Source: a plasmid. Taken from it: DNA of 64,000 bases. This document shows positions 9,771-47,495 of the stretch, one piece after another. Each line of letters begins with the position of its first letter. The stretch's first letter is position 1. The DNA lies in sequence record NZ_CP069678.1. The stretch is one strand, 5' to 3'. A program made the translations under genes and the position numbers. The notes beneath the pieces were generated by a model, which made no database searches, was not told the DNA's origin, and saw only the letters and a list, made by a program, of their open reading frames with translations.

Positions 9771-10398
9771 TCAACAACTTGGAAGGAGTAAGACTACTCG
9801 TGGCGATTCAATATTAGATCATTGATGGAGATATAAATGGCTCACTTTTTATCGGTTGTTGACGATACGTTTATCAAGTATACATGAAAATTTCTTCATA
9901 CCAGCTATATGAGACGTTAAGACTAATAATCTTACTCCCAAAATGACTATGTTGTTGCAGTTTGGTTTATTGACTCTTGTCTATAGTTCACCGAATGCCA
10001 AGATGAGGGAGCGAGGAACTTTACTGTCTACGCCTCTCTTCCTGGTTACAAAGACAAGCGTAAAACTCACCATCCATTAGAACTAAAGGCACTTTCCTGA
10101 GCAGAGTTTTCATCTGCAAGATAAAAGCTATTTTACAGCCGTAAAGTCCAGTGAAACGAAAGAGAGGTTAGTGAATTAATTACTTGATGTATTAAAGTAT
10201 AATGGGCGTAGATAACACCTTAATACGAAATCTTGTCAGGCTTTCCCGGTAATTAGTAATACTGTTGAAACAAAGCGAGAGGGGGTTAGCCCAATTTACG
10301 CAAATAAATAATAATCTTGATTATGATTAATTCCAAATAAGTATATTTTTCCAGTAGATGCTGGGCATTAACTAAGAAAACCCAGAATACCACTTTCA

Positions 10399-11607
10399 TT
10401 GTTATGGAAAACATGGACAATGTTAATGAAATATATTTCTCACCGCGCCATCATTTGTACCTTGACACTGTTGATCATTATTATCACCGTTTTGTTCACC
10501 TTTCTGAGAAGCTCTGATGTGCCAGAATATATTACTGCCCCGGTGCGCAAAGGCGATATAGAAAATTCTGTTCTGGCGACAGGCCGTATTGATGCAATTG
10601 AACGGGTAAACGTAGGGGCACAGGTATCAGGGCAATTAAAATCACTGAAAGTGAAACAGGGCGACCATGTGACTAAAGGGCAGTTGATTGCCGAAATTGA
10701 CGACCTACCTCAGTGTAACGATTTGCGTAATGCCGAAGCTGCACTCAACGAAGTGAAAGCAGAACTTCAATCCAAGCAGGCGCTCCTGAAACAGGCTGAA
10801 CTGCGTTTTAAACGCCAGCTCCGGATGCTAAGAGAAAATGCCAGCTCACACGAAGATTTTGAGTCTGCGGAGGCAATGCTTGCGACCACTCGCGCTGAAT
10901 TACATTCTCTGAATGCCAAACTGGTCCAGGCACAGATAGAAGTAGATAAGAAAAAGCTTGCCCTTGAATATACGCGAGTCGTAGCGCCAATGGATGGAAT
11001 TGTTATTGCCATTGTCACTCAGCAAGGGCAAACCGTTAACTCAAACCAGAGTGCCCCAACAATTATTAAACTCGCTCGTCTGGATGTCATGACCATTAAA
11101 GCACAGATCTCCGAGGCTGATATAACCCGTATTTCTGTGGGGCAAAAAGCCCGCTTCTCTATCTTCTCCGAACCGGACAAGCACTACAGCGCAACACTGC
11201 GTGCCGTTGAACTGGCACCAGAATCGGTAATGAAAGATGACTCTCTCGCCAGCAACACTTCAGCATCAGGCTCCGGAACTTCAAATGCGTCCGTTTATTA
11301 CAATGCTCTATTCGATGTGCCTAACCCAGAAAATCGACTTCGTATTGCCATGACTGCTCAGGTTACCCTGATTACTGATGAAGCCCAAAATACACTGCTG
11401 GTACCCATTCAGGCAGTGCACAGAAATGAGGGGAAGAAGCAACAGGTCCTGGTGCTGGCAGCAGATGGCAGGCTGGAACCCCGGAATGTGAAAACTGGTA
11501 TCACGAACAGCGTGGATATTCAGATCCTCGAAGGTTTAAATGTCGGAGAAAATGTCGTGCTGTCGCTGCCGGATAAGAAAGAGCCCGAAGAAAGGATTAT
11601 GCTGTGA
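10399..11607 (+). CDS. etsA: EtsA, MacA-like periplasmic adaptor (HlyD/membrane-fusion family)
   Basis: Membrane anchor plus coiled-coil and beta-barrel MFP architecture. The stop overlaps the etsB start (ATGCTGTGA). The listed TTG start at 10399 is doubtful; the ATG at 10420 or 10426 is more likely. Confidence 0.75.
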   Translation: MLWKTWTMLMKYISHRAIICTLTLLIIIITVLFTFLRSSDVPEYITAPVRKGDIENSVLATGRIDAIERVNVGAQVSGQLKSLKVKQGDHVTKGQLIAEIDDLPQCNDLRNAEAALNEVKAELQSKQALLKQAELRFKRQLRMLRENASSHEDFESAEAMLATTRAELHSLNAKLVQAQIEVDKKKLALEYTRVVAPMDGIVIAIVTQQGQTVNSNQSAPTIIKLARLDVMTIKAQISEADITRISVGQKARFSIFSEPDKHYSATLRAVELAPESVMKDDSLASNTSASGSGTSNASVYYNALFDVPNPENRLRIAMTAQVTLITDEAQNTLLVPIQAVHRNEGKKQQVLVLAADGRLEPRNVKTGITNSVDIQILEGLNVGENVVLSLPDKKEPEERIML

Positions 11608-26344: not shown

Positions 26345-26956
26345 TTTCAGATTTGGGCCACCTTTTGATTTCTCGTTTAACTTTTGCAGTCACCAGACTG
26401 TGATTTATTTTAACAAATCAATAGCTTTCATAAAATTCTCGAAGCTGAAAGCTTAACTGAACCAACCAGCCTGGCTGGTGTTTTCTAAAGACAAAAAGGC
26501 CATCAGCAAAACACTGATAGTCTGAATCACCTTTATCAATCATGTATGAAGAAAATATGCGCAATTAGTTGACAGTGATTATCATTTTCATTAAAAAGAG
26601 CGCGTAGCATTCTTATTTCATGAGGAAATTTACCCGCCAACAACCTGAGTAGCGAAAGCTGTTCATCCCCAATATTTTTGCTGGCGGGTTCTTTTTTCTA
26701 CTGTCCTCCTCCCCAGAGGAAGCATTCCCATTAATCATTACTGGCGAGGAGGCAAGAGAAAAAGTCGGTTCTTTGTCCCTAAATAACAGCATCATTTCAG
26801 TCCATGCAAAATCTGATTTACCAGCTCACATAATAACCTGATGATACACAGTGTAAGTTCACAGAGATATTGCAATTGCCTCCGGATAAGTAAGGGGAGA
26901 TTGCACTATGCAAATGCAGCACCTGAGGTTGGCTATCCTAAGCAGCCGATTATGCG

Positions 26957-28007
26957 TTGAGGCTTTCAGTGATGGCTGATATAGCAACAATGAGAATGAA
27001 GGCTCTGCACTTCTGGGATAAACACGGTATTTCTGCAGCTTCTGAAGCCTTTGGCGTATCCTGCCGCACGCTTTACTGGTGGCGTCAGTTACTGAACAAG
27101 GGAGGACCTGAGGGGCTAATCCCGCACAGTAAGGCACCTCTGGTGCGACGAAAAAAGCACTGGCATCCCGATGTGCTGAAAGAGATTCGACGCCTCAGGA
27201 CAGAGCTGCCGAACCTCGGTAAAGAGCAGATTTTTGTTCGCCTGAAGCCCTGGTGCGCATAACGCCATCAGACCTGCCCGAGTGTTTCCACCATCGGCAG
27301 AATGATCGCCACCGCACACGATAAAATGCGGATGATACCAGTACGTCTGAGCTCGCGGGGTAAGGCTCTGCTTGTCAAAAAGCGAACCACCAAACCCCCG
27401 CAGGCCAAAGCACTACCGTCCGGTAAAGACAGGAGAGCTCATTGGGATGGACGCCATTGAGCTCAGAATGGGTGAAATGCGTCGCTATATCATTACCATG
27501 ATCGACGAACACAGCGATTACGTACTGGCGCTGGCTGTGCCGTCGCTCAACAGTGATATCGTCAATCACTTTTTCAGCCGTGCAGCCCGGCTGTTCCCTG
27601 TCGGTATCAGCCAGATCATCACAGATAACGGGAAAGAGTTCCTGGGAAGCTTTGACAAAACGCTGCAGGAAGCCGCCATCAAACACCTCTGGACCTATCC
27701 CTACACGCCAAAAATGAACGCTATCTGTGAACGTTTTAACCGGGCATTAAGAGAGCAATTCATTGAATTTAATGAAATTTTACTCTTTGAGGATCTGGCG
27801 TTGTTTAACCTGAAACTGGCGGAATATCTGGCGCTGTATAACAGCAAAAGACTCCACAAGGCGCTCGCACTAACGACGCCCGTGGAATATATTTTAAAAG
27901 AGAACAAAAATTGCAATATGTGGTGGACCCATACACAGCAAACGCACAGGCCGCCCCGGTTGGGTAGATATGTGGGATGGCTGGTTCAGACTTCAGGATA
28001 TGGTTGA
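26957..28007 (+). pseudogene. IS481/IS3-like DDE transposase, split into two ORFs
   Basis: 26957-27262 encodes an HTH part. 27372-28007 encodes the rve core (...DNGKEF...YPYTPKMNAICERFNRALREQ...). Confidence 0.5.
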
Positions 28008-36575: not shown

Positions 36576-38753
36576 TCAGAATGATGCGGTAACTCCGGCA
36601 TAGTAAGCCCGGCCTGGCTCGTTATAGGTATTCGCCCCTTCAGAAGATCGGAAGATCTGTTTATTGAGGATATTACTGACGCCGACATTAAGACGCAGAT
36701 TTTTATTAATATCGTAATTGAAGTTCGTCCCCACCAGTGAATAAGCGCCCAGCTCTTTACCTGACAGACCGCCAGTATCTTCACTGCGGGTTTCCGCATG
36801 AGTACGCGGTTTTTGTCTGCCATATAACGTCCAGTTGACGCTGGCAGAAAACGCCTGGGTGATGGTCCAGTTAAGCGAGTTATTGATAGTATATTTCGGG
36901 ATGACCGACAGAGGATTACCGGTGTCTTTTTGCTCCGAAGTGATCATCCATGTGGCATTGGTATTCCAGTTCAGACGATCTTTCACCAGTGGGAAAGACA
37001 TACTGGCTTCGATACCGTCCACCAGAGCTTTCCCGCCATTCTGCCACTTGAGGATATATGCGCCTGAAGCGGTTTGCCCGATAACGTTATCCCCGGCCAC
37101 GATCTTATTCTGGTAATCATTGCGGAAGTAGGTCACACTTGCGTGGTAATCTTCCCAGGTGAACTCCAGCCCAATTTCTTTATTGACGCTGATTTCCGGA
37201 TCGAGATCTTTATTACCGATCAGGTAGCACCCGCCTGATGTAATATCTTTTGGACAGCCATTGCCTTTCGAGTAGAGCAGATAGCCTTCACTGGATTGAT
37301 ACAGGTTTGGGGCTTTAAAGGTTCGGGCAACCCCTGCTTTGACTTTGAAATAATCGCCCAATTCCTGCGAAAGATTCAGACTGGGGCTGAAGTTCCCGCC
37401 GGAGTCGCTGAGATAATCAAAGCGCAGGCCGGGAATGATATTCGTGCCAGGAACCGGCTCAATGTTATCTTCAATATACAGCGCACTGATTTGAGAATGA
37501 TTTTTACTGCTGCGATCCGCAGCAGAGCCAGAAATACCGCTGATATCACTGTCATTCACCGTCAGGCTGGTAGAGGAAGGATCATCGAGCTTATCGCGGT
37601 TCCACTCTGCACCAACGGTCAGCGTTTGATCAACCATCACATTCAAAGGAATATTAAGCTCGCCGCTGGTTCGCCAGGAACTCAGGCGATTGGTCGTAAA
37701 CTTTTCACCCGCTAAAATACGCCCTTCACCACCGCCGGATAATCCTTCATTCATGCGGGTATTATTGGTTTTCTCGTAATAAACACCAAAGCGACTTTGT
37801 CCCCAGTCCCAGATACCATTATGCGTAATGCCATAATTCTGTCGGTACAGGCGGTTCGTCTCTTTGCCGGATTTTGCCAGGCTTTCGGTAACTGCACTGG
37901 AAGAACTGTTTTGCGTATCGCCCGCATAGATATTCCCCTGGCGGCTATATCCGGCTTCGAAATCGAGAATCTGCTGCGGATTTAATTTCCACGAGACAAC
38001 GCCGTTAATATCTTTGTTACGTACCCCTTCATGCCCGGCTGCGTTTTTCGTACCGACCGGAGAATTAATATCCCAACTGTCAGCATCCGTTTTATTCAGG
38101 TTACCATACAAACGCGTGGTAAGAGCATTACCAGCCAGAGGCCCACTAAGGCTGAAATTGGCGCGACGCGTAGCGCCCTCATCGCTACTTTCCGGCTGAT
38201 TGGTGTATAACGACAGCGAACCGTGCCAGTCGTTGGTGGGACGTTTGGTAATGATGTTCACCACCCCCCCGGCTGCCCCCGAACCGTAGCGCGCCGCCGC
38301 AGGGCCGCGGATCACTTCAATACGCTCAACCTGTTCCGGTGGCACCCAGTTGGTGTCACCGCGGGTATCACGCTCTCCACGCCAGCTATAACGCACGGAG
38401 TTACGTGACGTCACCGGTACACCATCAATTAAAATTAAGGTGTTTTCCGGCCCCATACCACGAATATCGATCTGGCGGTTGTTACCGCGTGTGCCCGAGG
38501 CGCTATTGCCGGTAAGATTGACGCCAGGCATTTTACGAATAATATCTGAAAGGTCGTTTACCGGAGGGGTCTTTTTAATATCCTCGCTGGTAATAACCGA
38601 CACGCCCGGCTGCTGTTTTAATACCTGCTCAGCGGTGGCTTCCACCACCAGAGTCTCGTCATTATCATCGTCGGAGGATTTGGCTACTGATACCTGGCTA
38701 TTCAACCCAACCAGGAGCACAGTTAGCGACCAGAGGATTTTGTTAATTCTCAT
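36576..38753 (-). CDS. iroN: IroN, TonB-dependent salmochelin receptor
   Basis: 725 aa with a signal peptide, TonB box (ETLVVEA), plug and 22-strand barrel, and a C-terminal F. Convergent with iroBCDE. Confidence 0.9.
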   Translation of the reverse strand: MRINKILWSLTVLLVGLNSQVSVAKSSDDDNDETLVVEATAEQVLKQQPGVSVITSEDIKKTPPVNDLSDIIRKMPGVNLTGNSASGTRGNNRQIDIRGMGPENTLILIDGVPVTSRNSVRYSWRGERDTRGDTNWVPPEQVERIEVIRGPAAARYGSGAAGGVVNIITKRPTNDWHGSLSLYTNQPESSDEGATRRANFSLSGPLAGNALTTRLYGNLNKTDADSWDINSPVGTKNAAGHEGVRNKDINGVVSWKLNPQQILDFEAGYSRQGNIYAGDTQNSSSSAVTESLAKSGKETNRLYRQNYGITHNGIWDWGQSRFGVYYEKTNNTRMNEGLSGGGEGRILAGEKFTTNRLSSWRTSGELNIPLNVMVDQTLTVGAEWNRDKLDDPSSTSLTVNDSDISGISGSAADRSSKNHSQISALYIEDNIEPVPGTNIIPGLRFDYLSDSGGNFSPSLNLSQELGDYFKVKAGVARTFKAPNLYQSSEGYLLYSKGNGCPKDITSGGCYLIGNKDLDPEISVNKEIGLEFTWEDYHASVTYFRNDYQNKIVAGDNVIGQTASGAYILKWQNGGKALVDGIEASMSFPLVKDRLNWNTNATWMITSEQKDTGNPLSVIPKYTINNSLNWTITQAFSASVNWTLYGRQKPRTHAETRSEDTGGLSGKELGAYSLVGTNFNYDINKNLRLNVGVSNILNKQIFRSSEGANTYNEPGRAYYAGVTASF

Positions 38754-38848
38754 ACCTATTCCCTAATAAATGCCTAACTTAAAATGTTTGATCGTTAAGC
38801 TCACATCCTTGCCAGATATTTCTTACTGCCATTATTGTTTTTATATAA

Positions 38849-38868
38849 GAATGATAATTAATATCATT
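38849..38868. promoter_or_regulatory. Fur box in the iroN promoter region
   Basis: GAATGATAATTAATATCATT lies ~95 bp upstream of the iroN start. Confidence 0.45.
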
Positions 38869-39618
38869 TAGTAAAAGAAAAAGCAATCCCTCACAAGATA
38901 CATATATTGATTTTTCATAAATATCAAATTGATATATAACATATGTTTTTTATTTCATTGCACTTGTCGATCATCGGGAATTTTGTCACAATTTCTCACG
39001 GATAGTGTTCACATTGTTTCTGACCTGCATTTCAGGCGCGGGCGCTGCTTATGTATATAAGGGCCTGTGGTCGACGAATCAGCATAATCAGATCTTCCTG
39101 CGAACAATTTCTTTCAGCGTATCAGGCAGCACTATCGGATTATCTACGAGCGTTTTTGATTCACATTGTGTGTGAAACTTCATACATCATGATTCGCTTT
39201 CCCTACTCAGTTCTGATGATTGTTTTTTATTCTATTAACACGGAGTTAAGATTCTACCCTCGGTGTCCTCATTATTAATGAGGAATGCTACCTATCTAAA
39301 AACTGACCGAAACTTTGGGGCATCCCTGGAGGTTTCCAAGGAGAAAAAGGTGACAGTGATAGTGCCACATTGTGAGGAAATTCCTGAGAAACTCCTGAGA
39401 AACTCCTGGTTCACACACATAATTCAGGAGCTTGCCATAGATAGTAACCAATTGTTTTATATTTTAAGACCATTAAATACGCGGCTACGATAGCGCTTTA
39501 TATAATCATAAACTGTAGAGATAAAATATCTGCTTCTCTGATAACACTAATTGAGTGTCTTAAACTAAGTAATTTCATTTTTCCCCCTTTAAAAGCAATA
39601 TATGTGCAATAGTTGAAG

Positions 39619-40653
39619 TTAAAGCTGTGCTGCCAGAGTTGATAATAATTGTTCTGTCTGTTGCCATGATATGCATTCATCAGTAACAGACTGACCATAC
39701 TCTAGCGGAAAACTATCGGATTGTTTTCCATCTTGTAAAAAGCTTTCCACCATAATGCCAGCTACATATCCTGGTATTTTTTTCCGATTATCTATAACTT
39801 GACGTGCAACGGAAATTTGCCGTTTAGCCACTTTACCGCTATTACCATGGCTACAATCAATTATCAGACGATGGTTAATGCCCTCATCATGCATTAATTT
39901 CACTGCCTTAGTTATATCAGACAAACCATAGTTAGGTTCTCTACCTCCACGTAATATTAGATGTCCATGTGGATTGCCATCGGTTAATAGTGTAGATATA
40001 CTATTTGTTAAAGATGTCATATATACAATATGTTGTTCACGGGCTGCAATAATAGCGTCAATAGCTAAGTTAATATTTCCATCAGTACTGTTTTTAAATC
40101 CAACTGGACAATGTAAACCAGACGCAAGTTGACGATGCGTTTGTGATTCAGTGGTTCTGGCACCAATAGCACCCCAACATATTAAATCAGCAATATAGGG
40201 AGTAAGAAAAGGATCGAGGAATTCTGTAGCGGTTGCGACACGCATCGTTGTGATTGAAGACAAACACTGGCGAGCATATCGTATCCCTTTCTCAACATCA
40301 TAACTTCCATTTAGATCAGGATCGTGCATTATTCCCTTCCAGCCTTTACGGGTTCGAGGTTTCTCAAAATAAGTGCGCATTACAATGTACATTTTCGATA
40401 AGTACTTATTCTGTAATACGAACAATCGCTTCGCATAATCAACTGCGGCCTGAACGTCATGGATTGAGCATGGACCAACAATCACAAGTAAGCGAGGATC
40501 TTTTCCCAGCAAAATATTCGCTATAATATCTCGTTGCAGAGAGATCCATGTTACGGTTTCTTCCGATACTGCGATTTCTTTATGAATCTCGCCCACAGTG
40601 GGTAAACTGCCAAGCAACTTCCCGCGGTAGATTAATTTACTAGCTGACTGCAT
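39619..40653 (-). CDS. class I-alpha (AroG/F/H-type) DAHP synthase
   Basis: 344 aa, collinear with E. coli AroG (VIVGPCSIHD, KPRT, GARTTESQ). SD AGGAG 7 nt upstream. Confidence 0.85.
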   Translation of the reverse strand: MQSASKLIYRGKLLGSLPTVGEIHKEIAVSEETVTWISLQRDIIANILLGKDPRLLVIVGPCSIHDVQAAVDYAKRLFVLQNKYLSKMYIVMRTYFEKPRTRKGWKGIMHDPDLNGSYDVEKGIRYARQCLSSITTMRVATATEFLDPFLTPYIADLICWGAIGARTTESQTHRQLASGLHCPVGFKNSTDGNINLAIDAIIAAREQHIVYMTSLTNSISTLLTDGNPHGHLILRGGREPNYGLSDITKAVKLMHDEGINHRLIIDCSHGNSGKVAKRQISVARQVIDNRKKIPGYVAGIMVESFLQDGKQSDSFPLEYGQSVTDECISWQQTEQLLSTLAAQL

Positions 40654-40699
40654 CTTGTCTCCTAAAAGCGCTATTTCAGACCATCAGTTGCACACAGTA

Positions 40700-40721
40700 G
40701 ATGATAATGATAATCATTTAC
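40700..40721. promoter_or_regulatory. near-consensus Fur box overlapping the -10 of the DAHP synthase promoter
   Basis: GATGATAATGATAATCATTTAC matches 17/19 of GATAATGATAATCATTATC. On the gene strand it lies between TTGCCA (-35) and TATCAT (-10), ~50 nt upstream of the ATG. Confidence 0.55.
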
Positions 40722-41212
40722 TGTATAATTGGCAATATATGGGGATTCATAGTCATTTCTGAGATAATATACGTTAGGCCTTCTCTCCCGTACGGAAATC
40801 ACTTGTTTTCCGTAAATTACCTGAATCTTAATCCCTGAGCTGCGGCTAGCTGTGGAACTCACAAAAGCTGACCGGGCCGTGGCACAGCCTCTCTGCTGGC
40901 AGAACAGCGTACTGCAGAAGTCGTCGTACTGCCGCTGGTCCCGGCATCAGGTCTGCCCGCAGATGGCACTTCTGCCACTGATCTGCCGGTGGAGCTGAAC
41001 GGCATGACATATCAGGCCTGCCGTGGGGATTTTGTGGTGCGCCTCGACGGCAGCACCTGTCTGCAGTTATAGAATAAAGAAGGCGGGGAGGTACGCCGGG
41101 AGGGCGATCCGCTGGAAGTGGCGTAGTGGCTGTAGGCCTGTAATGATGCAGGAATAGAAGTTCGTGTACAGGTTAATGAAAGCATCACCCCGTAAAAACA
41201 TGCCGGCACGGT

Positions 41213-41521
41213 TTACACATCATTCCATGGTGGCAGCCGGTTAACTTTCCTGCGCCACCAGTGGAAAGAGGCCATGAGCAGTCCGAACAAAAAACCACTC
41301 GTGATACTTATAATAATGGCCTCACCTGCTACCATTCCTGACGGCCCCCAGTACATAAACCACATTGCACATCCCCAGGAAATACCCCATAAGCCCCCCA
41401 TCAGCAGCGTAACCTGCCAGAACGGCATAAAGGGCAATGGCGGAAGCCGGATACCCAGCCGCCAGAGAATACGCAGCAGAGGAGGAGCATAATTACTCCG
41501 CCACATCTTTTTGCTGTCCAT
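41213..41521 (-). CDS. hypothetical small membrane protein
   Basis: 102-aa ORF with two or three hydrophobic, Trp-rich segments. No recognised family. Confidence 0.3.
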   Translation of the reverse strand: MDSKKMWRSNYAPPLLRILWRLGIRLPPLPFMPFWQVTLLMGGLWGISWGCAMWFMYWGPSGMVAGEAIIISITSGFLFGLLMASFHWWRRKVNRLPPWNDV

Positions 41522-41619
41522 CAGGGCAATTGCCCGGGCTTTTTTTGCTCAAAAGTCACAGGAGCACCTCCGTTCCATGATGTAAACGTGACACAACTTA
41601 TTGTTATTGATTATTATTA

Positions 41620-42059
41620 TCATACCGTGATTATGTTGTCATGCACCTGTACACTGATAAAAGAAAGGGAGAACAGGAGGCTGGCTGAACAACCAATCCG
41701 TTCGTCCAGTTCAATGGCGGCTATCAGGTTCTGCTCCGCAATGTACTCACGAATGCGCTTCCTGTCCTGGCTGGCCAGCATGGTCCAGAATATCTCCATC
41801 ATTTACCGGCGACTTTCCTGCTCATTTCATCCCGCCATGCAGCAGCGGAAGATTCGACCATGTCATGGGGAAGCACATCGCCGCGCTCGAGTTGCTGACG
41901 TCCTGCCTCAACCTGGTCACGGAACCAGGTATTATGCTGCCGTTCCACGGTCTGGCGCATAAAATCCCGGATTAACTGAGAGCCATTACGGTCCATGCTT
42001 TTTGCAGGGCCATAAAAGCATCCTTCAGTTCAGCGTCAATTCTTAAACTCATATTAACC
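41620..42059 (-). pseudogene. decayed type II toxin-antitoxin pair (RHH/ParD-like antitoxin, frameshifted; RelE/ParE-like toxin, truncated)
   Basis: Minus strand MSLRIDAELKDAF... (RHH) shifts frame into ...MDRNGSQLIRDFMRQTVERQ... The downstream ORF 41620-41802 begins MMEIFWTMLASQDRKRIREYIAEQNL... (ParE-like) and then degenerates. Confidence 0.4.
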
Positions 42060-42677
42060 TGTGCCATTTATCACCCCGTCATTACCACGTATATACACAG
42101 TATATAACGATTCAGATATCGTCACTAGGATATGCCGCGCCAGCGGCATGGAAGGCGGCACTCCGCTGTTTCATATGATACCGCCGAAGCCCGATGTAAG
42201 CCGCTACAGTCGTCCGAAAGTCACCAGCCTCCTCCCCCCTGCCGTCATCCGTGCATCAGCTATGCACTGAGTATGCCTGCCCTTCCCTAGAGAATCCTGC
42301 CAGGCTTGCCACACTGATATATCTTGACTTTATGTAAACGATATGACACTTTAACATGATAATGATTACCATTCTCTTTTAATATACAGAGAAACTAGGA
42401 AATAGATGAATGAGTTATGTTACTTTAATATTCTCTGACAATAACCTAAATCAGTTAGATTATTGTCATTTAATAAATAATGACATTCTTTCATCATAAA
42501 TAAAAAGACTATTGTTTATAATATTGTTCTCAGCATTATATGATTATTTATCCTGATAACTCTCCTATGTTGTATGTTTATATGATTTTCCTTGAAACAT
42601 ATAATGCAAATTTTCGATTTATTTTCCATCATTAATCCAGATAAACAACAAACTAATAGTATGCAAGGAGACATTAT

Positions 42678-43952
42678 TTGTTTCGCCAGGATGCTTTAGA
42701 AAACAGAAAAATGAAGTGGCAGGGACGGGCAATATTACTTCCCGGAATACCACTGTGGTTAATCATGCTGGGAAGCATTGTGTTTATTACGGCATTTCTG
42801 ATGTTCATTATTGTTGGTACCTATAGCCGCCGTGTTAATGTCAGTGGTGAGGTCACAACCTGGCCAAGAGCTGTCAATATATATTCAGGTGTACAGGGAT
42901 TTGTTGTCAGGCAGTTTGTTCATGAAGGGCAGTTGATAAAAAAAGGGGATCCTGTTTATCTGATTGACATCAGTAAAAGTACACGCAATGGTATTGTCAC
43001 TGATAATCATCGCCGGGATATAGAAAACCAGCTGGTTCGTGTGAACAACATTATTTCCCGTCTGGAAGAAAGTAAAAAAATAACGCTAGATACCCTGGAA
43101 AAACAACGTCTGCAATACACAGATGCGTTCCGTCGCTCATCAGACATTATACAGCGTGCAGAGGAAGGGATAAAAATAATGAAAAATAATATGGAGAATT
43201 ACAGATACTATCAGTCAAAAGGACTGATTAATAAAGATCAATTAACTAACCAAGTTGCATTATATTATCAACAACAAAACAACCTTCTCAGTCTGAGCGG
43301 ACAAAATGAACAAAATGCCCTGCAGATAACCACTCTGGAGAGTCAGATTCAGACTCAGGCAGCAGATTTTGATAATCGTATCTATCAGATGGAACTGCAA
43401 CGACTCGAATTGCAGAAAGAACTGGTTAACACTGATGTGGAAGGCGAAATCATTATCCGGGCGTTGTCTGACGGGAAAGTTGACTCCCTGAGTGTCACTG
43501 TAGGGCAAATGGTCAATACCGGAGACAGCCTTCTGCAGGTTATTCCTGAGAACATTGAAAACTATTATCTTATTCTCTGGGTCCCGAATGATGCTGTTCC
43601 TTATATTTCGGCTGGTGACAAAGTGAATATTCGTTATGAAGCCTTCCCCTCAGAAAAATTTGGGCAGTTCTCTGCTACGGTTAAAACTATATCCAGGACT
43701 CCTGCGTCAACACAGGAAATGTTGACCTATAAGGGCGCACCTCAAAATACGCCGGGTGCCTCTGTTCCCTGGTATAAAGTCATTGCGACGCCTGAAAAGC
43801 AGATAATCAGGTATGACGAAAAATACCTCCCTCTGGAAAATGGAATGAAAGCCGAAAGTACACTATTTCTGGAAAAAAGGCGTATTTACCAGTGGATGCT
43901 TTCTCCTTTCTATGACATGAAACACAGTGCAACAGGACCGATCAATGACTAA
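42678..43952 (+). CDS. cvaA: CvaA, colicin V secretion membrane-fusion protein (HlyD family)
   Basis: Matches CvaA. An alternative in-frame start lies at 42711 (MKWQG). The 3' end overlaps cvaB by 8 nt. Confidence 0.85.
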
Positions 43953-46041
43953 CAGGAATTTCAGACAAATTATAAATCTGCTTGATTTGCGCTGGCAACG
44001 TCGTGTTCCGGTTATTCATCAGACGGAGACCGCTGAATGTGGACTGGCCTGCCTAGCAATGATATGCGGTCATTTTGGTAAGAATATTGACCTGATATAT
44101 CTTCGCCGGAAGTTTAATCTCTCTGCCCGTGGAGCAACCCTTGCAGGAATCAATGGAATAGCGGAGCAACTGGGGATGGCCACCCGGGCTCTTTCACTGG
44201 AGTTGGATGAACTTCGAGTCCTCAAAACGCCGTGTATTCTCCACTGGGATTTCAGTCACTTCGTCGTTCTGGTCAGCGTAAAGCGTAACCGTTATGTACT
44301 GCATGATCCGGCCAGGGGCATAAGATATATCAGCCGGGAGGAAATGAGCCGATATTTTACAGGCGTTGCACTTGAGGTCTGGCCCGGAAGTGAATTCCAG
44401 TCGGAAACCCTGCAGACCCGCATAAGTCTTCGTTCACTGATTAACAGTATTTACGGTATTAAAAGAACGCTGGCGAAAATTTTCTGTCTGTCAGTTGTAA
44501 TTGAAGCAATCAATCTGCTAATGCCGGTGGGGACACAGCTGGTTATGGATCATGCTATTCCTGCGGGGGACAGAGGGCTACTGACGCTAATTTCTGCTGC
44601 TCTTATGTTTTTTATATTACTCAAAGCTGCAACGAGTACGCTGCGCGCATGGTCTTCACTGGTTATGAGCACGCTCATCAATGTACAGTGGCAGTCGGGG
44701 CTGTTCGATCATCTTCTCAGACTACCGCTGGCGTTTTTTGAACGCCGAAAATTAGGTGATATCCAGTCACGTTTTGACTCCCTTGACACATTGAGGGCCA
44801 CATTTACCACCAGTGTGATCGGGTTCATAATGGACAGCATTATGGTTGTCGGTGTTTGTGTGATGATGCTGTTATACGGAGGATATCTCACCTGGATAGT
44901 TCTCTGCTTTACCACAATTTACATTTTTATTCGACTGGTGACATACGGCAATTACCGACAGATATCAGAAGAATGTCTTGTCAGGGAGGCCCGTGCCGCC
45001 TCCTATTTTATGGAAACATTATATGGTATTGCCACGGTAAAAATCCAGGGGATGGTCGGAATTCGGGGAGCACACTGGCTTAATATGAAAATAGATGCGA
45101 TAAATTCGGGTATTAAGCTAACCAGGATGGATTTGCTCTTCGGAGGAATAAATACCTTTGTTACCGCCTGTGATCAGATTGTAATTTTATGGCTGGGAGC
45201 AGGCCTTGTGATCGATAATCAGATGACAATAGGAATGTTTGTAGCGTTTAGTTCTTTTCGTGGGCAGTTTTCGGAAAGAGTTGCCTCTCTGACCAGTTTT
45301 CTTCTTCAGCTAAGAATAATGAGTCTGCACAATGAGCGCATTGCAGATATTGCATTACATGAAAAGGAGGAAAAGAAACCTGAAATTGAAATCGTTGCTG
45401 ATATGGGGCCAATATCCCTGGAAACCAATGGTTTAAGCTATCGTTATGACAGTCAGTCAGCACCGATATTCAGTGCTCTGAGTTTATCTGTAGCTCCGGG
45501 GGAAAGTGTGGCTATAACTGGTGCTTCCGGTGCGGGAAAAACCACATTAATGAAAGTACTATGTGGACTATTTGAACCTGATAGCGGGAGGGTACTGATA
45601 AATGGTATAGATATACGCCAAATTGGAATAAATAATTATCACCGGATGATAGCCTGTGTTATGCAGGATGACCGGCTATTTTCAGGCTCAATTCGTGAAA
45701 ATATCTGTGGTTTTGCAGAGGAAATGGATGAAGAGTGGATGGTAGAATGTGCCAGAGCAAGTCATATTCATGATGTTATAATGAATATGCCAATGGGATA
45801 TGAAACATTAATAGGTGAACTTGGGGAAGGTCTTTCTGGCGGTCAAAAACAGCGTATATTTATTGCACGAGCCTTATACCGGAAACCAGGAATATTATTT
45901 ATGGATGAGGCAACCAGTGCTCTTGATTCAGAGAGTGAACATTTCGTGAATGTTGCCATAAAAAACATGAATATCACCAGGGTAATTATTGCACACAGAG
46001 AAACAACGTTGAGAACTGTTGATAGAGTTATTTCTATTTAA
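43945..46041 (+). CDS. cvaB: CvaB, colicin V ABC exporter with N-terminal C39 peptidase domain
   Basis: 698 aa from MTNRNF. C39 catalytic Cys ([13 protein letters not shown]), six TM segments, NBD ([17 protein letters not shown]). Confidence 0.9.
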
Positions 46042-46166: not shown

Positions 46167-47495
46167 CTGATGAATCCCCTAATGATTTTTATCAAAATCA
46201 TTAAGTTAAGGTAGATACACATCTTGTCATATGATCAAATGGTTTCGCCAAAAATCAATAATCAGACAACAAAATGTGCGAACTCGATATTTTACACGAC
46301 TCTCTTTACCAATTCTGCCCCGAATTACACTTAAAACGACTCAACAGCTTAACGTTGGCTTGCCACGCCTTACTTGACTGTAAAACTCTCACTCTTACCG
46401 AACTTGGCCGTAACCTGCCAACCAAAGCGAGAACAAAACATAACATCAAACGAATCGACCGATTGTTAGGTAATCGTCACCTCCACAAAGAGCGACTCGC
46501 TGTATACCGTTGGCATGCTAGCTTTATCTGTTCGGGCAATACGATGCCCATTGTACTTGTTGACTGGTCTGATATCCGTGAGCAAAAACGGCTTATGGTA
46601 TTGCGAGCTTCAGTCGCACTACACGGTCGTTCTGTTACTCTTTATGAGAAAGCGTTCCCGCTTTCAGAGCAATGTTCAAAGAAAGCTCATGACCAATTTC
46701 TAGCCGACCTTGCGAGCATTCTACCGAGTAACACCACACCGCTCATTGTCAGTGATGCTGGCTTTAAAGTGCCATGGTATAAATCCGTTGAGAAGCTGGG
46801 TTGGTACTGGTTAAGTCGAGTAAGAGGAAAAGTACAATATGCAGACCTAGGAGCGGAAAACTGGAAACCTATCAGCAACTTACATGATATGTCATCTAGT
46901 CACTCAAAGACTTTAGGCTATAAGAGGCTGACTAAAAGCAATCCAATCTCATGCCAAATTCTATTGTATAAATCTCGCTCTAAAGGCCGAAAAAATCAGC
47001 GCTCGACACGGACTCATTGTCACCACCCGTCACCTAAAATCTACTCAGCGTCGGCAAAGGAGCCATGGATTCTAGCAACTAACTTACCTGTTGAAATTCG
47101 AACACCCAAACAACTTGTTAATATCTATTCGAAGCGAATGCAGATTGAAGAAACCTTCCGAGACTTGAAAAGTCCTGCCTACGGACTAGGCCTACGCCAT
47201 AGCCGAACGAGCAGCTCAGAGCGTTTTGATATCATGCTGCTAATCGCCCTGATGCTTCAACTAACATGTTGGCTTGCGGGCGTTCATGCTCAGAAACAAG
47301 GTTGGGACAAGCACTTCCAGGCTAACACAGTCAGAAATCGAAACGTACTCTCAACAGTTCGCTTAGGCATGGAAGTTTTGCGGCATTCTGGCTACACAAT
47401 AACAAGGGAAGACTCACTCGTGGCTGCAACCCTGCTTACTCAAAATCTATTCACACATGGTTACGTTTTGGGGAAATTATGAGGGGATCTCTCAG
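46167..47495 (+). mobile_element. IS10 (copy B, 1329 bp), inverted relative to copy A
   Basis: Identical 402-aa transposase at 46274-47482. Outside end at 46167, inside end at 47495. 9-bp duplication CATTCTGTG at 46158-46166 and 47496-47504. It is inserted between the 3' ends of cvaB and cvaC. Confidence 0.9.

Follow-up and report, generated by a model that had tools for sequence, protein, structure and literature searches.

The DAHP synthase gene found in the plasmid DNA that we analysed (64,000 nucleotides of sequence record NZ_CP069678.1, hereafter the window) is ssbL, a named gene that ColV-type plasmids carry next to iroBCDEN. With a probability of roughly 0.92, it provides extraintestinal pathogenic E. 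coli (ExPEC) with a fourth isozyme of DAHP synthase and acts as an iron-switched booster of siderophore production. This finding is a rediscovery, as the reading offered by the original prediction is essentially the one already published for ssbL. Since all of the booster role is in the literature, the window brings no new biology on that point. Only the pattern seen across a clade of related enzymes and the regulation of the enzyme itself may include unpublished parts, and neither of them would surprise a specialist.

The ssbL coding sequence occupies positions 39619..40653 on the minus strand, starts with ATG and codes for 344 amino acids, which the list of open reading frames, Pfam and NCBIfam identify as a type I-alpha DAHP synthase (3-deoxy-7-phosphoheptulonate synthase). 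Direct reading of the sequence also reveals a Shine-Dalgarno motif, AGGAG, at 40659..40663 on the same strand, 5 nt before the start codon. By curated thresholds, SsbL is a member of the AroFGH family of type I-alpha enzymes: it matches PF00793 (DAHP_synth_1) in Pfam with an E-value of 7.6e-76 and 255 bits (threshold, 25.5), and TIGR00034 (aroFGH) in NCBIfam with 420 bits (cutoff, 173). The three isozyme-specific NCBIfam models are all missed; for instance, SsbL scores 362 bits versus the 568 required by the AroG equivalog model (NF006723) and 442 bits versus the 463 of the AroH subfamily model (NF009396). Its identity to the enzymes of E. coli K-12 is 43% for AroG, 44% for AroF and 49% for AroH, and it is a fourth isozyme class and no copy of any of these three. 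The original prediction had described a complete AroG-type DAHP synthase gene between iroN and the cva genes; the gene is indeed complete and lies at that place, but the term AroG-type was too specific, given the modest identity to AroG and the missed AroG model.

In the alignment, SsbL and all aligned members of the clade described below retain each of the ten AroG residues checked for catalytic, metal-binding or PEP-binding roles. These residues are the metal ligands C61, H268, E302 and D326 and the PEP/phosphate-binding residues R92, K97, R99, R165, K186 and R234. The AlphaFold model of SsbL (pLDDT 93.3, pTM 0.92) superposes on NmeDAH7PS and AroG (1KFL, 4HSN and related entries) with a TM of about 0.94, and the fold that it predicts is a TIM barrel with an N-terminal extension and a beta6a/6b hairpin, whose strands would span residues 209-213 and 219-223. 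The conversion of phosphoenolpyruvate (PEP) and erythrose-4-phosphate (E4P) into DAHP by SsbL is suggested by the genetics of Lemaitre et al. (2014), as later papers summarise it; the literature searched yielded no enzyme assay of SsbL. Regarding base composition, the GC content of ssbL is 40% and that of the surrounding region 36-47%; the 40% of the gene, in a window that averages 48%, fits a foreign origin.

SsbL is identical at 344 of 344 amino acids to the product of ORF 123 of pS88 (pECOS88; WP_001190234.1), and the 207 nt upstream of the gene, which include the promoter and the Fur box, match pS88 at all 207 positions. In a study of that plasmid, Lemaitre et al. (2012; PMC3438092) observed that ORF 123 showed the strongest induction of any pS88 gene, with increases of 354.6-fold in LB with dipyridyl, 190.9-fold in human serum and 109.6-fold in urine, together with an in vivo increase of 144.7-fold on a related plasmid. 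The idea that the gene of the window is induced by iron starvation is borne out by these results, as the 354.6-fold induction with dipyridyl was obtained with a sequence identical to that of the window. The same authors described a Fur-box-like sequence preceding ORF 123 and proposed that a boost in chorismate would lead to enterobactin and salmochelin (Lemaitre et al. 2012; PMC3438092). The name ssbL was later given by Lemaitre et al. (2014; J Bacteriol 196:1343), a work that, according to the summaries in later papers, describes how ssbL increases, by way of the shikimate pathway, the production of siderophores of the catecholate and phenolate types, and regards the gene as an auxiliary virulence factor. 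The increased siderophore output that those summaries report agrees with the earlier proposal that an extra DAHP synthase would raise the supply of precursors for catecholate siderophores. Additionally, in a TraDIS analysis of systemic infection, the chromosomal allele, c1220, was the top fitness factor (12.92), and a defined mutant was at a competitive disadvantage in spleen and liver (PMC3855560). In ExPEC, ssbL plays a part in bacteraemia and in systemic fitness, and it is an example of an acquired virulence locus that brings its own metabolic booster, directing carbon towards chorismate when siderophores are needed. Lemaitre and co-workers reportedly also observed, in 2014, lower growth in low iron and its rescue by chorismate.

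In the mechanism that we propose, under iron-sufficient conditions Fe2+-Fur would sit on the operator that covers the -10 element and block RNA polymerase. When iron becomes scarce, Fur would leave and ssbL would be derepressed more than 100-fold, which would place it among the most strongly induced genes of the plasmid. SsbL would then condense PEP and E4P into DAHP, adding capacity at the step that commits carbon to the shikimate pathway, and the larger shikimate flux would yield more chorismate and, from it, more isochorismate, 2,3-dihydroxybenzoate and salicylate. The supply of the last two compounds would finally favour the production of enterobactin, salmochelin and yersiniabactin. The identity of the gene, its intact catalytic residues, the geometry of promoter and operator and their conservation were all observed here, and it is the literature that shows the response of expression to iron, the dependence of the chromosomal allele on Fur and the effects on siderophore output and virulence. 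The kinetics or the regulation of SsbL would be expected to differ from those of AroF, AroG and AroH.

The geometry of the regulatory region is the one that the original prediction had reported. A sigma-70-type promoter is present on the minus strand at 40707..40735, with TTGCCA as its -35 element (40735-40730), a 17-nt spacer and TATCAT as its -10 element (40712-40707), so that the hexamers agree with the consensus at 10 of 12 positions. This match alone is not significant, since the promoter scan found 17 such sites in 4 kb versus 11.7 expected. A Fur box, GATAATGATAATCATTTAC, is found on the plus strand at 40703..40721, where it matches the 19-mer consensus at 17 of 19 positions and covers the -10 element of ssbL; the 22-mer originally noticed corresponds to 40700-40721. 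Matches to the Fur consensus with up to three mismatches number 10 in the window versus 0.00 expected from dinucleotide shuffles, and several of the others are located at known iron-regulated promoters, namely those of iroB (28777/28783), cvaA (42358) and cvi/cvaC (48123). The plasmid and the chromosomal alleles of ssbL share the same operator core, TAAATGATTATCATTATCA, within flanks that diverge. From this identity of the core amid diverged surroundings, we infer that Fur probably occupies the plasmid operator as well. The Fur ChIP evidence comes from the chromosomal allele, as c1220 of strain CFT073 is among the genes that Fur regulates directly (PMC7157518), and the literature searched contained no experiment that measured Fur binding directly on the plasmid operator.

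The closest relatives of SsbL, at about 70% identity, come from Citrobacter amalonaticus and Morganellaceae, and the next, at 50-55%, from Veronia, Vibrio, Shimwellia and Psychromonas; in a neighbour-joining tree, SsbL and these relatives form a branch apart from AroF, AroG and AroH and from the AroH orthologues. Inspection of the flanks revealed NRPS, FecCD and TonB-receptor genes around the Citrobacter gene, TonB-receptor and NRPS genes around that of Morganellaceae, a full entA/C/E/B-like and NRPS cluster in V. vulnificus, and entA- and entC-like genes in Veronia. In fact, wherever the surroundings of a clade member were examined, a siderophore cluster contains or adjoins the gene, and a Fur-like box precedes it, located 40-95 nt before the start codon in the ssbL homologues. 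Relative to the 17/19 of the plasmid ssbL, the match to the 19-mer is 18/19 in Veronia, 17/19 in V. vulnificus, 16/19 in the chromosomal ssbL of E. coli and 14/19 in both Citrobacter and Morganellaceae. The two boxes with 14/19 derive from a best-match scan, in which they appear at a position equivalent to that of the ssbL box, and a strict search (at most three mismatches) found no box directly upstream of these two homologues; as a control, 14/19 or better was reached in only 2 of 300 shuffled 400-nt windows.

Among these relatives, the DAHP synthase of a vulnibactin-type locus of V. vulnificus (P0030; 356 amino acids) is about 50% identical to SsbL and belongs to its clade, sharing with it both the change of Q151 to Pro in the effector pocket and a strong upstream Fur box (17/19). 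The two differ in their setting, as the Vibrio genes are found inside the biosynthetic cluster, whereas ssbL is a stand-alone module of 1.3 kb beside the iro locus for tailoring and uptake. The V. vulnificus cluster (positions 10001-11071 of stretch L009 and their flanks) comprises entA/C/E/B-like genes, NRPS genes, a protein with a CM_2 domain and a SIP reductase, with Fur boxes of 17/19 and 16/19 upstream. Our literature searches found neither a publication describing a siderophore-linked clade of DAHP synthases nor work on a DAHP synthase within Vibrio siderophore clusters. Given that its relatives lie at siderophore loci and are preceded by Fur-like boxes, ssbL looks like one of a broader set of DAHP synthases that would be regulated by iron and linked to siderophores.

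An alternative explanation of what ssbL provides, and the one that survives best, is that SsbL is mainly a feedback-escape isozyme, whose value would lie less in the amount of enzyme than in its insensitivity to Phe, Tyr and Trp and in its freedom from repression by TyrR or TrpR, so that chorismate would still be made in host fluids rich in amino acids, in which AroF, AroG and AroH would be switched off. We regard this as a tentative possibility, somewhat short of even odds. The enzyme shares with AroG, AroF and AroH (sensitive to Phe, Tyr and Trp, respectively) the fold, the length class, the catalytic residues, the N-terminal extension and the beta6a/6b hairpin, but it differs from them in its 43-49% identity, its separate branch in the tree, the residues of its pocket and its control by Fur rather than by TyrR or TrpR. 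At the positions of the AroG effector pocket, SsbL carries T instead of P150, P instead of Q151, H instead of S180, V instead of F209 and M instead of S211, and it has no acidic residue at AroG D6/D7. These AroG positions line the Phe site (1KFL) or give feedback-resistant mutants. Similar changes occur throughout the siderophore-linked clade, with Q151 changed to Pro in all members and the catalytic residues intact, and the PDB titles of solved variants from N. meningitidis, at the corresponding residues F211, S213 and V223, describe them as regulatory-site variants. The failure of SsbL to reach any of the isozyme-specific models also points in this direction, as does the outcome of the operator scans: of 35 matches to the TyrR box (31 expected), none was in the ssbL promoter, and no TrpR operator was matched in the window, although both scans use consensus sequences that make them weak tests.

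By contrast, the pocket positions vary widely among type I-alpha DAHP synthases, as, among 120 cluster representatives, only 47 have Q151 and 27 have Pro at this position, and the pocket changes are consequently not diagnostic of lost regulation. After this survey, the argument that loss of feedback follows from the pocket residues was downgraded to a hypothesis. Additionally, the model of SsbL retains the N-terminal extension and the beta6a/6b hairpin, a regulatory element, and this predicted structure would be compatible with some allostery. Judging by titles and abstracts, the literature searched contained nothing relevant on the feedback properties of siderophore-linked DAHP synthases. The suggestion of the original prediction that the extra copy could bypass the feedback exerted by aromatic amino acids is, then, only weakly supported by the sequence and is best taken as a sensible hypothesis. 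If SsbL or its clade did escape feedback, this would bear on siderophore output in amino-acid-rich host fluids, and SsbL could serve metabolic engineering as a naturally deregulated DAHP synthase.

Combining both lines, it is conceivable, with odds that we put a little below one half, that SsbL is the E. coli representative of a siderophore-dedicated and Fur-controlled clade, spread over Enterobacterales and Vibrionaceae, that would have been recruited repeatedly to catechol/NRPS loci and whose remodelled pocket would perhaps no longer sense Phe, Tyr and Trp or would respond to another ligand. In such a case, the supply of siderophore precursors would be uncoupled from the homeostasis of aromatic amino acids.

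The chromosomal ssbL is known as c1220 in the uropathogenic strain CFT073 and as ECP_0281 in strain 536, and it is found in the serX pathogenicity island. Like the plasmid gene, c1220 codes for a Fur-regulated fourth isozyme of DAHP synthase that is a fitness factor in infection. The chromosomal copy of strain EcPF5, taken as a representative, is 94% identical to the plasmid SsbL in protein and 91% in DNA; the operator core and the -10 element are the same in both alleles, but the -35 element differs, being TTGTCA in the chromosome. The location also differs, as the chromosomal gene is 20-30 kb from iro, whereas the plasmid gene adjoins iroN. When both loci were compared by blastn (plasmid versus the EcPF5 stretch L002), the full homology at ssbL covered 39508..40815, with 89.6% identity over 1309 nt; these limits define the ssbL module on the minus strand, comprising promoter, gene and 111 nt downstream. 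The only other block common to the two loci is formed by the exporter genes, cvaAB versus mchEF, which are 92% identical. In EcPF5, the distance from ssbL to mchI/mchB is about 3 kb and that to mchEF about 6 kb, these genes belonging to a cluster that also contains mcmA (L002 10168-21035). As the chromosomal ssbL is beside the genes for microcins H47 and M, ssbL neighbours the exporter locus of a class II microcin in both settings, which hints at an old linkage with class II microcin islands.

This linkage could be taken further, to propose that ssbL originally served siderophore-microcins modified with catechol, of the MccH47/MccM type, instead of salmochelin, and that its place beside cvaAB on ColV plasmids is left over from a microcin island. 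The short distances to mchI/mchB and mchEF in the serX island would agree with this proposal, as would the fact that the module and the exporter genes are all that the two loci have in common, and Fur also acts directly on the microcin H47 genes (PMC7157518). We nevertheless consider such an origin improbable: the relatives from Citrobacter, Morganellaceae and Vibrio adjoin siderophore NRPS clusters, with no microcin genes in the flanks examined, and the published phenotype of ssbL, as far as later summaries convey it, concerns free siderophores. Moreover, the two roles are not mutually exclusive. Microcin V itself is not known to carry a catechol modification, which also speaks against the proposal. 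Even less credible, to the point of being nearly discarded, is that the match to the Fur box arises from the AT-richness of promoter sequence and that ssbL is a passenger without any iron-specific role, since, although the ssbL region is AT-rich (36-47% GC) and promoter-like hexamers are about as frequent there as in shuffled sequence, this notion is already contradicted by the published induction of more than 100-fold upon iron depletion and by the membership of c1220 in the direct Fur regulon (PMC7157518), and it also has against it the excess of Fur matches over shuffled sequence, their presence at the iroB, cvaA and cvi promoters, and the persistence of the operator core across diverged alleles and across genera.

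The distribution of ssbL follows that of the salmochelin genes in one direction. The 2 kb around the gene (39300-41300) are 100% identical in many ColV-type plasmids and are covered to at least 80% in 352 plasmids. Among 5426 complete E. coli genomes, ssbL with its promoter is present in 622, with 450 plasmid locations of at least 99% identity and 188 chromosomal locations of about 91%, and iroB is present in 873. According to published work, the gene occurs only together with iro and the reverse does not hold, and the larger number of genomes with iroB (873 versus 622) fits this one-way co-occurrence.

Within the window, iroN, which codes for the salmochelin receptor, follows ssbL downstream on the minus strand (36576..38753), and the microcin V export genes cvaA and cvaB are divergent from it (42678..46041, plus). 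The Fur consensus scan placed the cvaA-side box at 42358-42376, with 17/19. A weaker Fur-like box (15/19) was also seen at 38847-38865, 94-112 nt upstream of the iroN start, and another, with three mismatches, at 26571-26589, near an open reading frame that is a remnant of an integrase core (27372-28007). The order of genes is like that of pS88, where iroN is on one side of ssbL, and a DUF6404 gene, yacAB remnants and cvaA are on the other.

Directly after ssbL, and within the conserved module, there is a 26-codon open reading frame (39578-39498, minus) with a strong Shine-Dalgarno sequence, AAGGGGG. It was rejected as a real gene because a 1-nt indel puts it out of frame after about 10 codons in the chromosomal allele and because it gave no Pfam match when searched as part of a 66-amino-acid open reading frame; it is probably a remnant of a lost downstream gene of the operon.

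On the other side, a gene for a DUF6404 membrane protein occupies 41213-41521 on the minus strand (Pfam E-value, 4.5e-31). Upstream of it there is a promoter-like sequence, ATGACA-18-AATAAT, with a Fur-like box of 16/19, GATAATAATAATCAATAAC, over its -10 element (41603-41642). In the pS88 table, a 'conserved hypothetical' open reading frame located between cvaA and ORF 123, pS88118, is induced about 3-7-fold in iron-poor conditions. This may be the DUF6404 gene, which may in that case be a further iron-regulated gene. Between it and cvaA, at 41620-41996 on the minus strand, short open reading frames are weakly similar to a ParE toxin and a RelB antitoxin, and their pS88 counterpart is annotated as yacA and a truncated yacB; the segment looks like a decayed toxin-antitoxin pair. 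Finally, an open reading frame of 402 amino acids for a DDE_Tnp_1 transposase (46274-47482, plus) separates cvaB from cvaC, whereas in pAPEC-1 these two genes are directly adjacent, with no IS transposase between them. This insertion may affect the structure of the microcin V operon in the plasmid analysed here.
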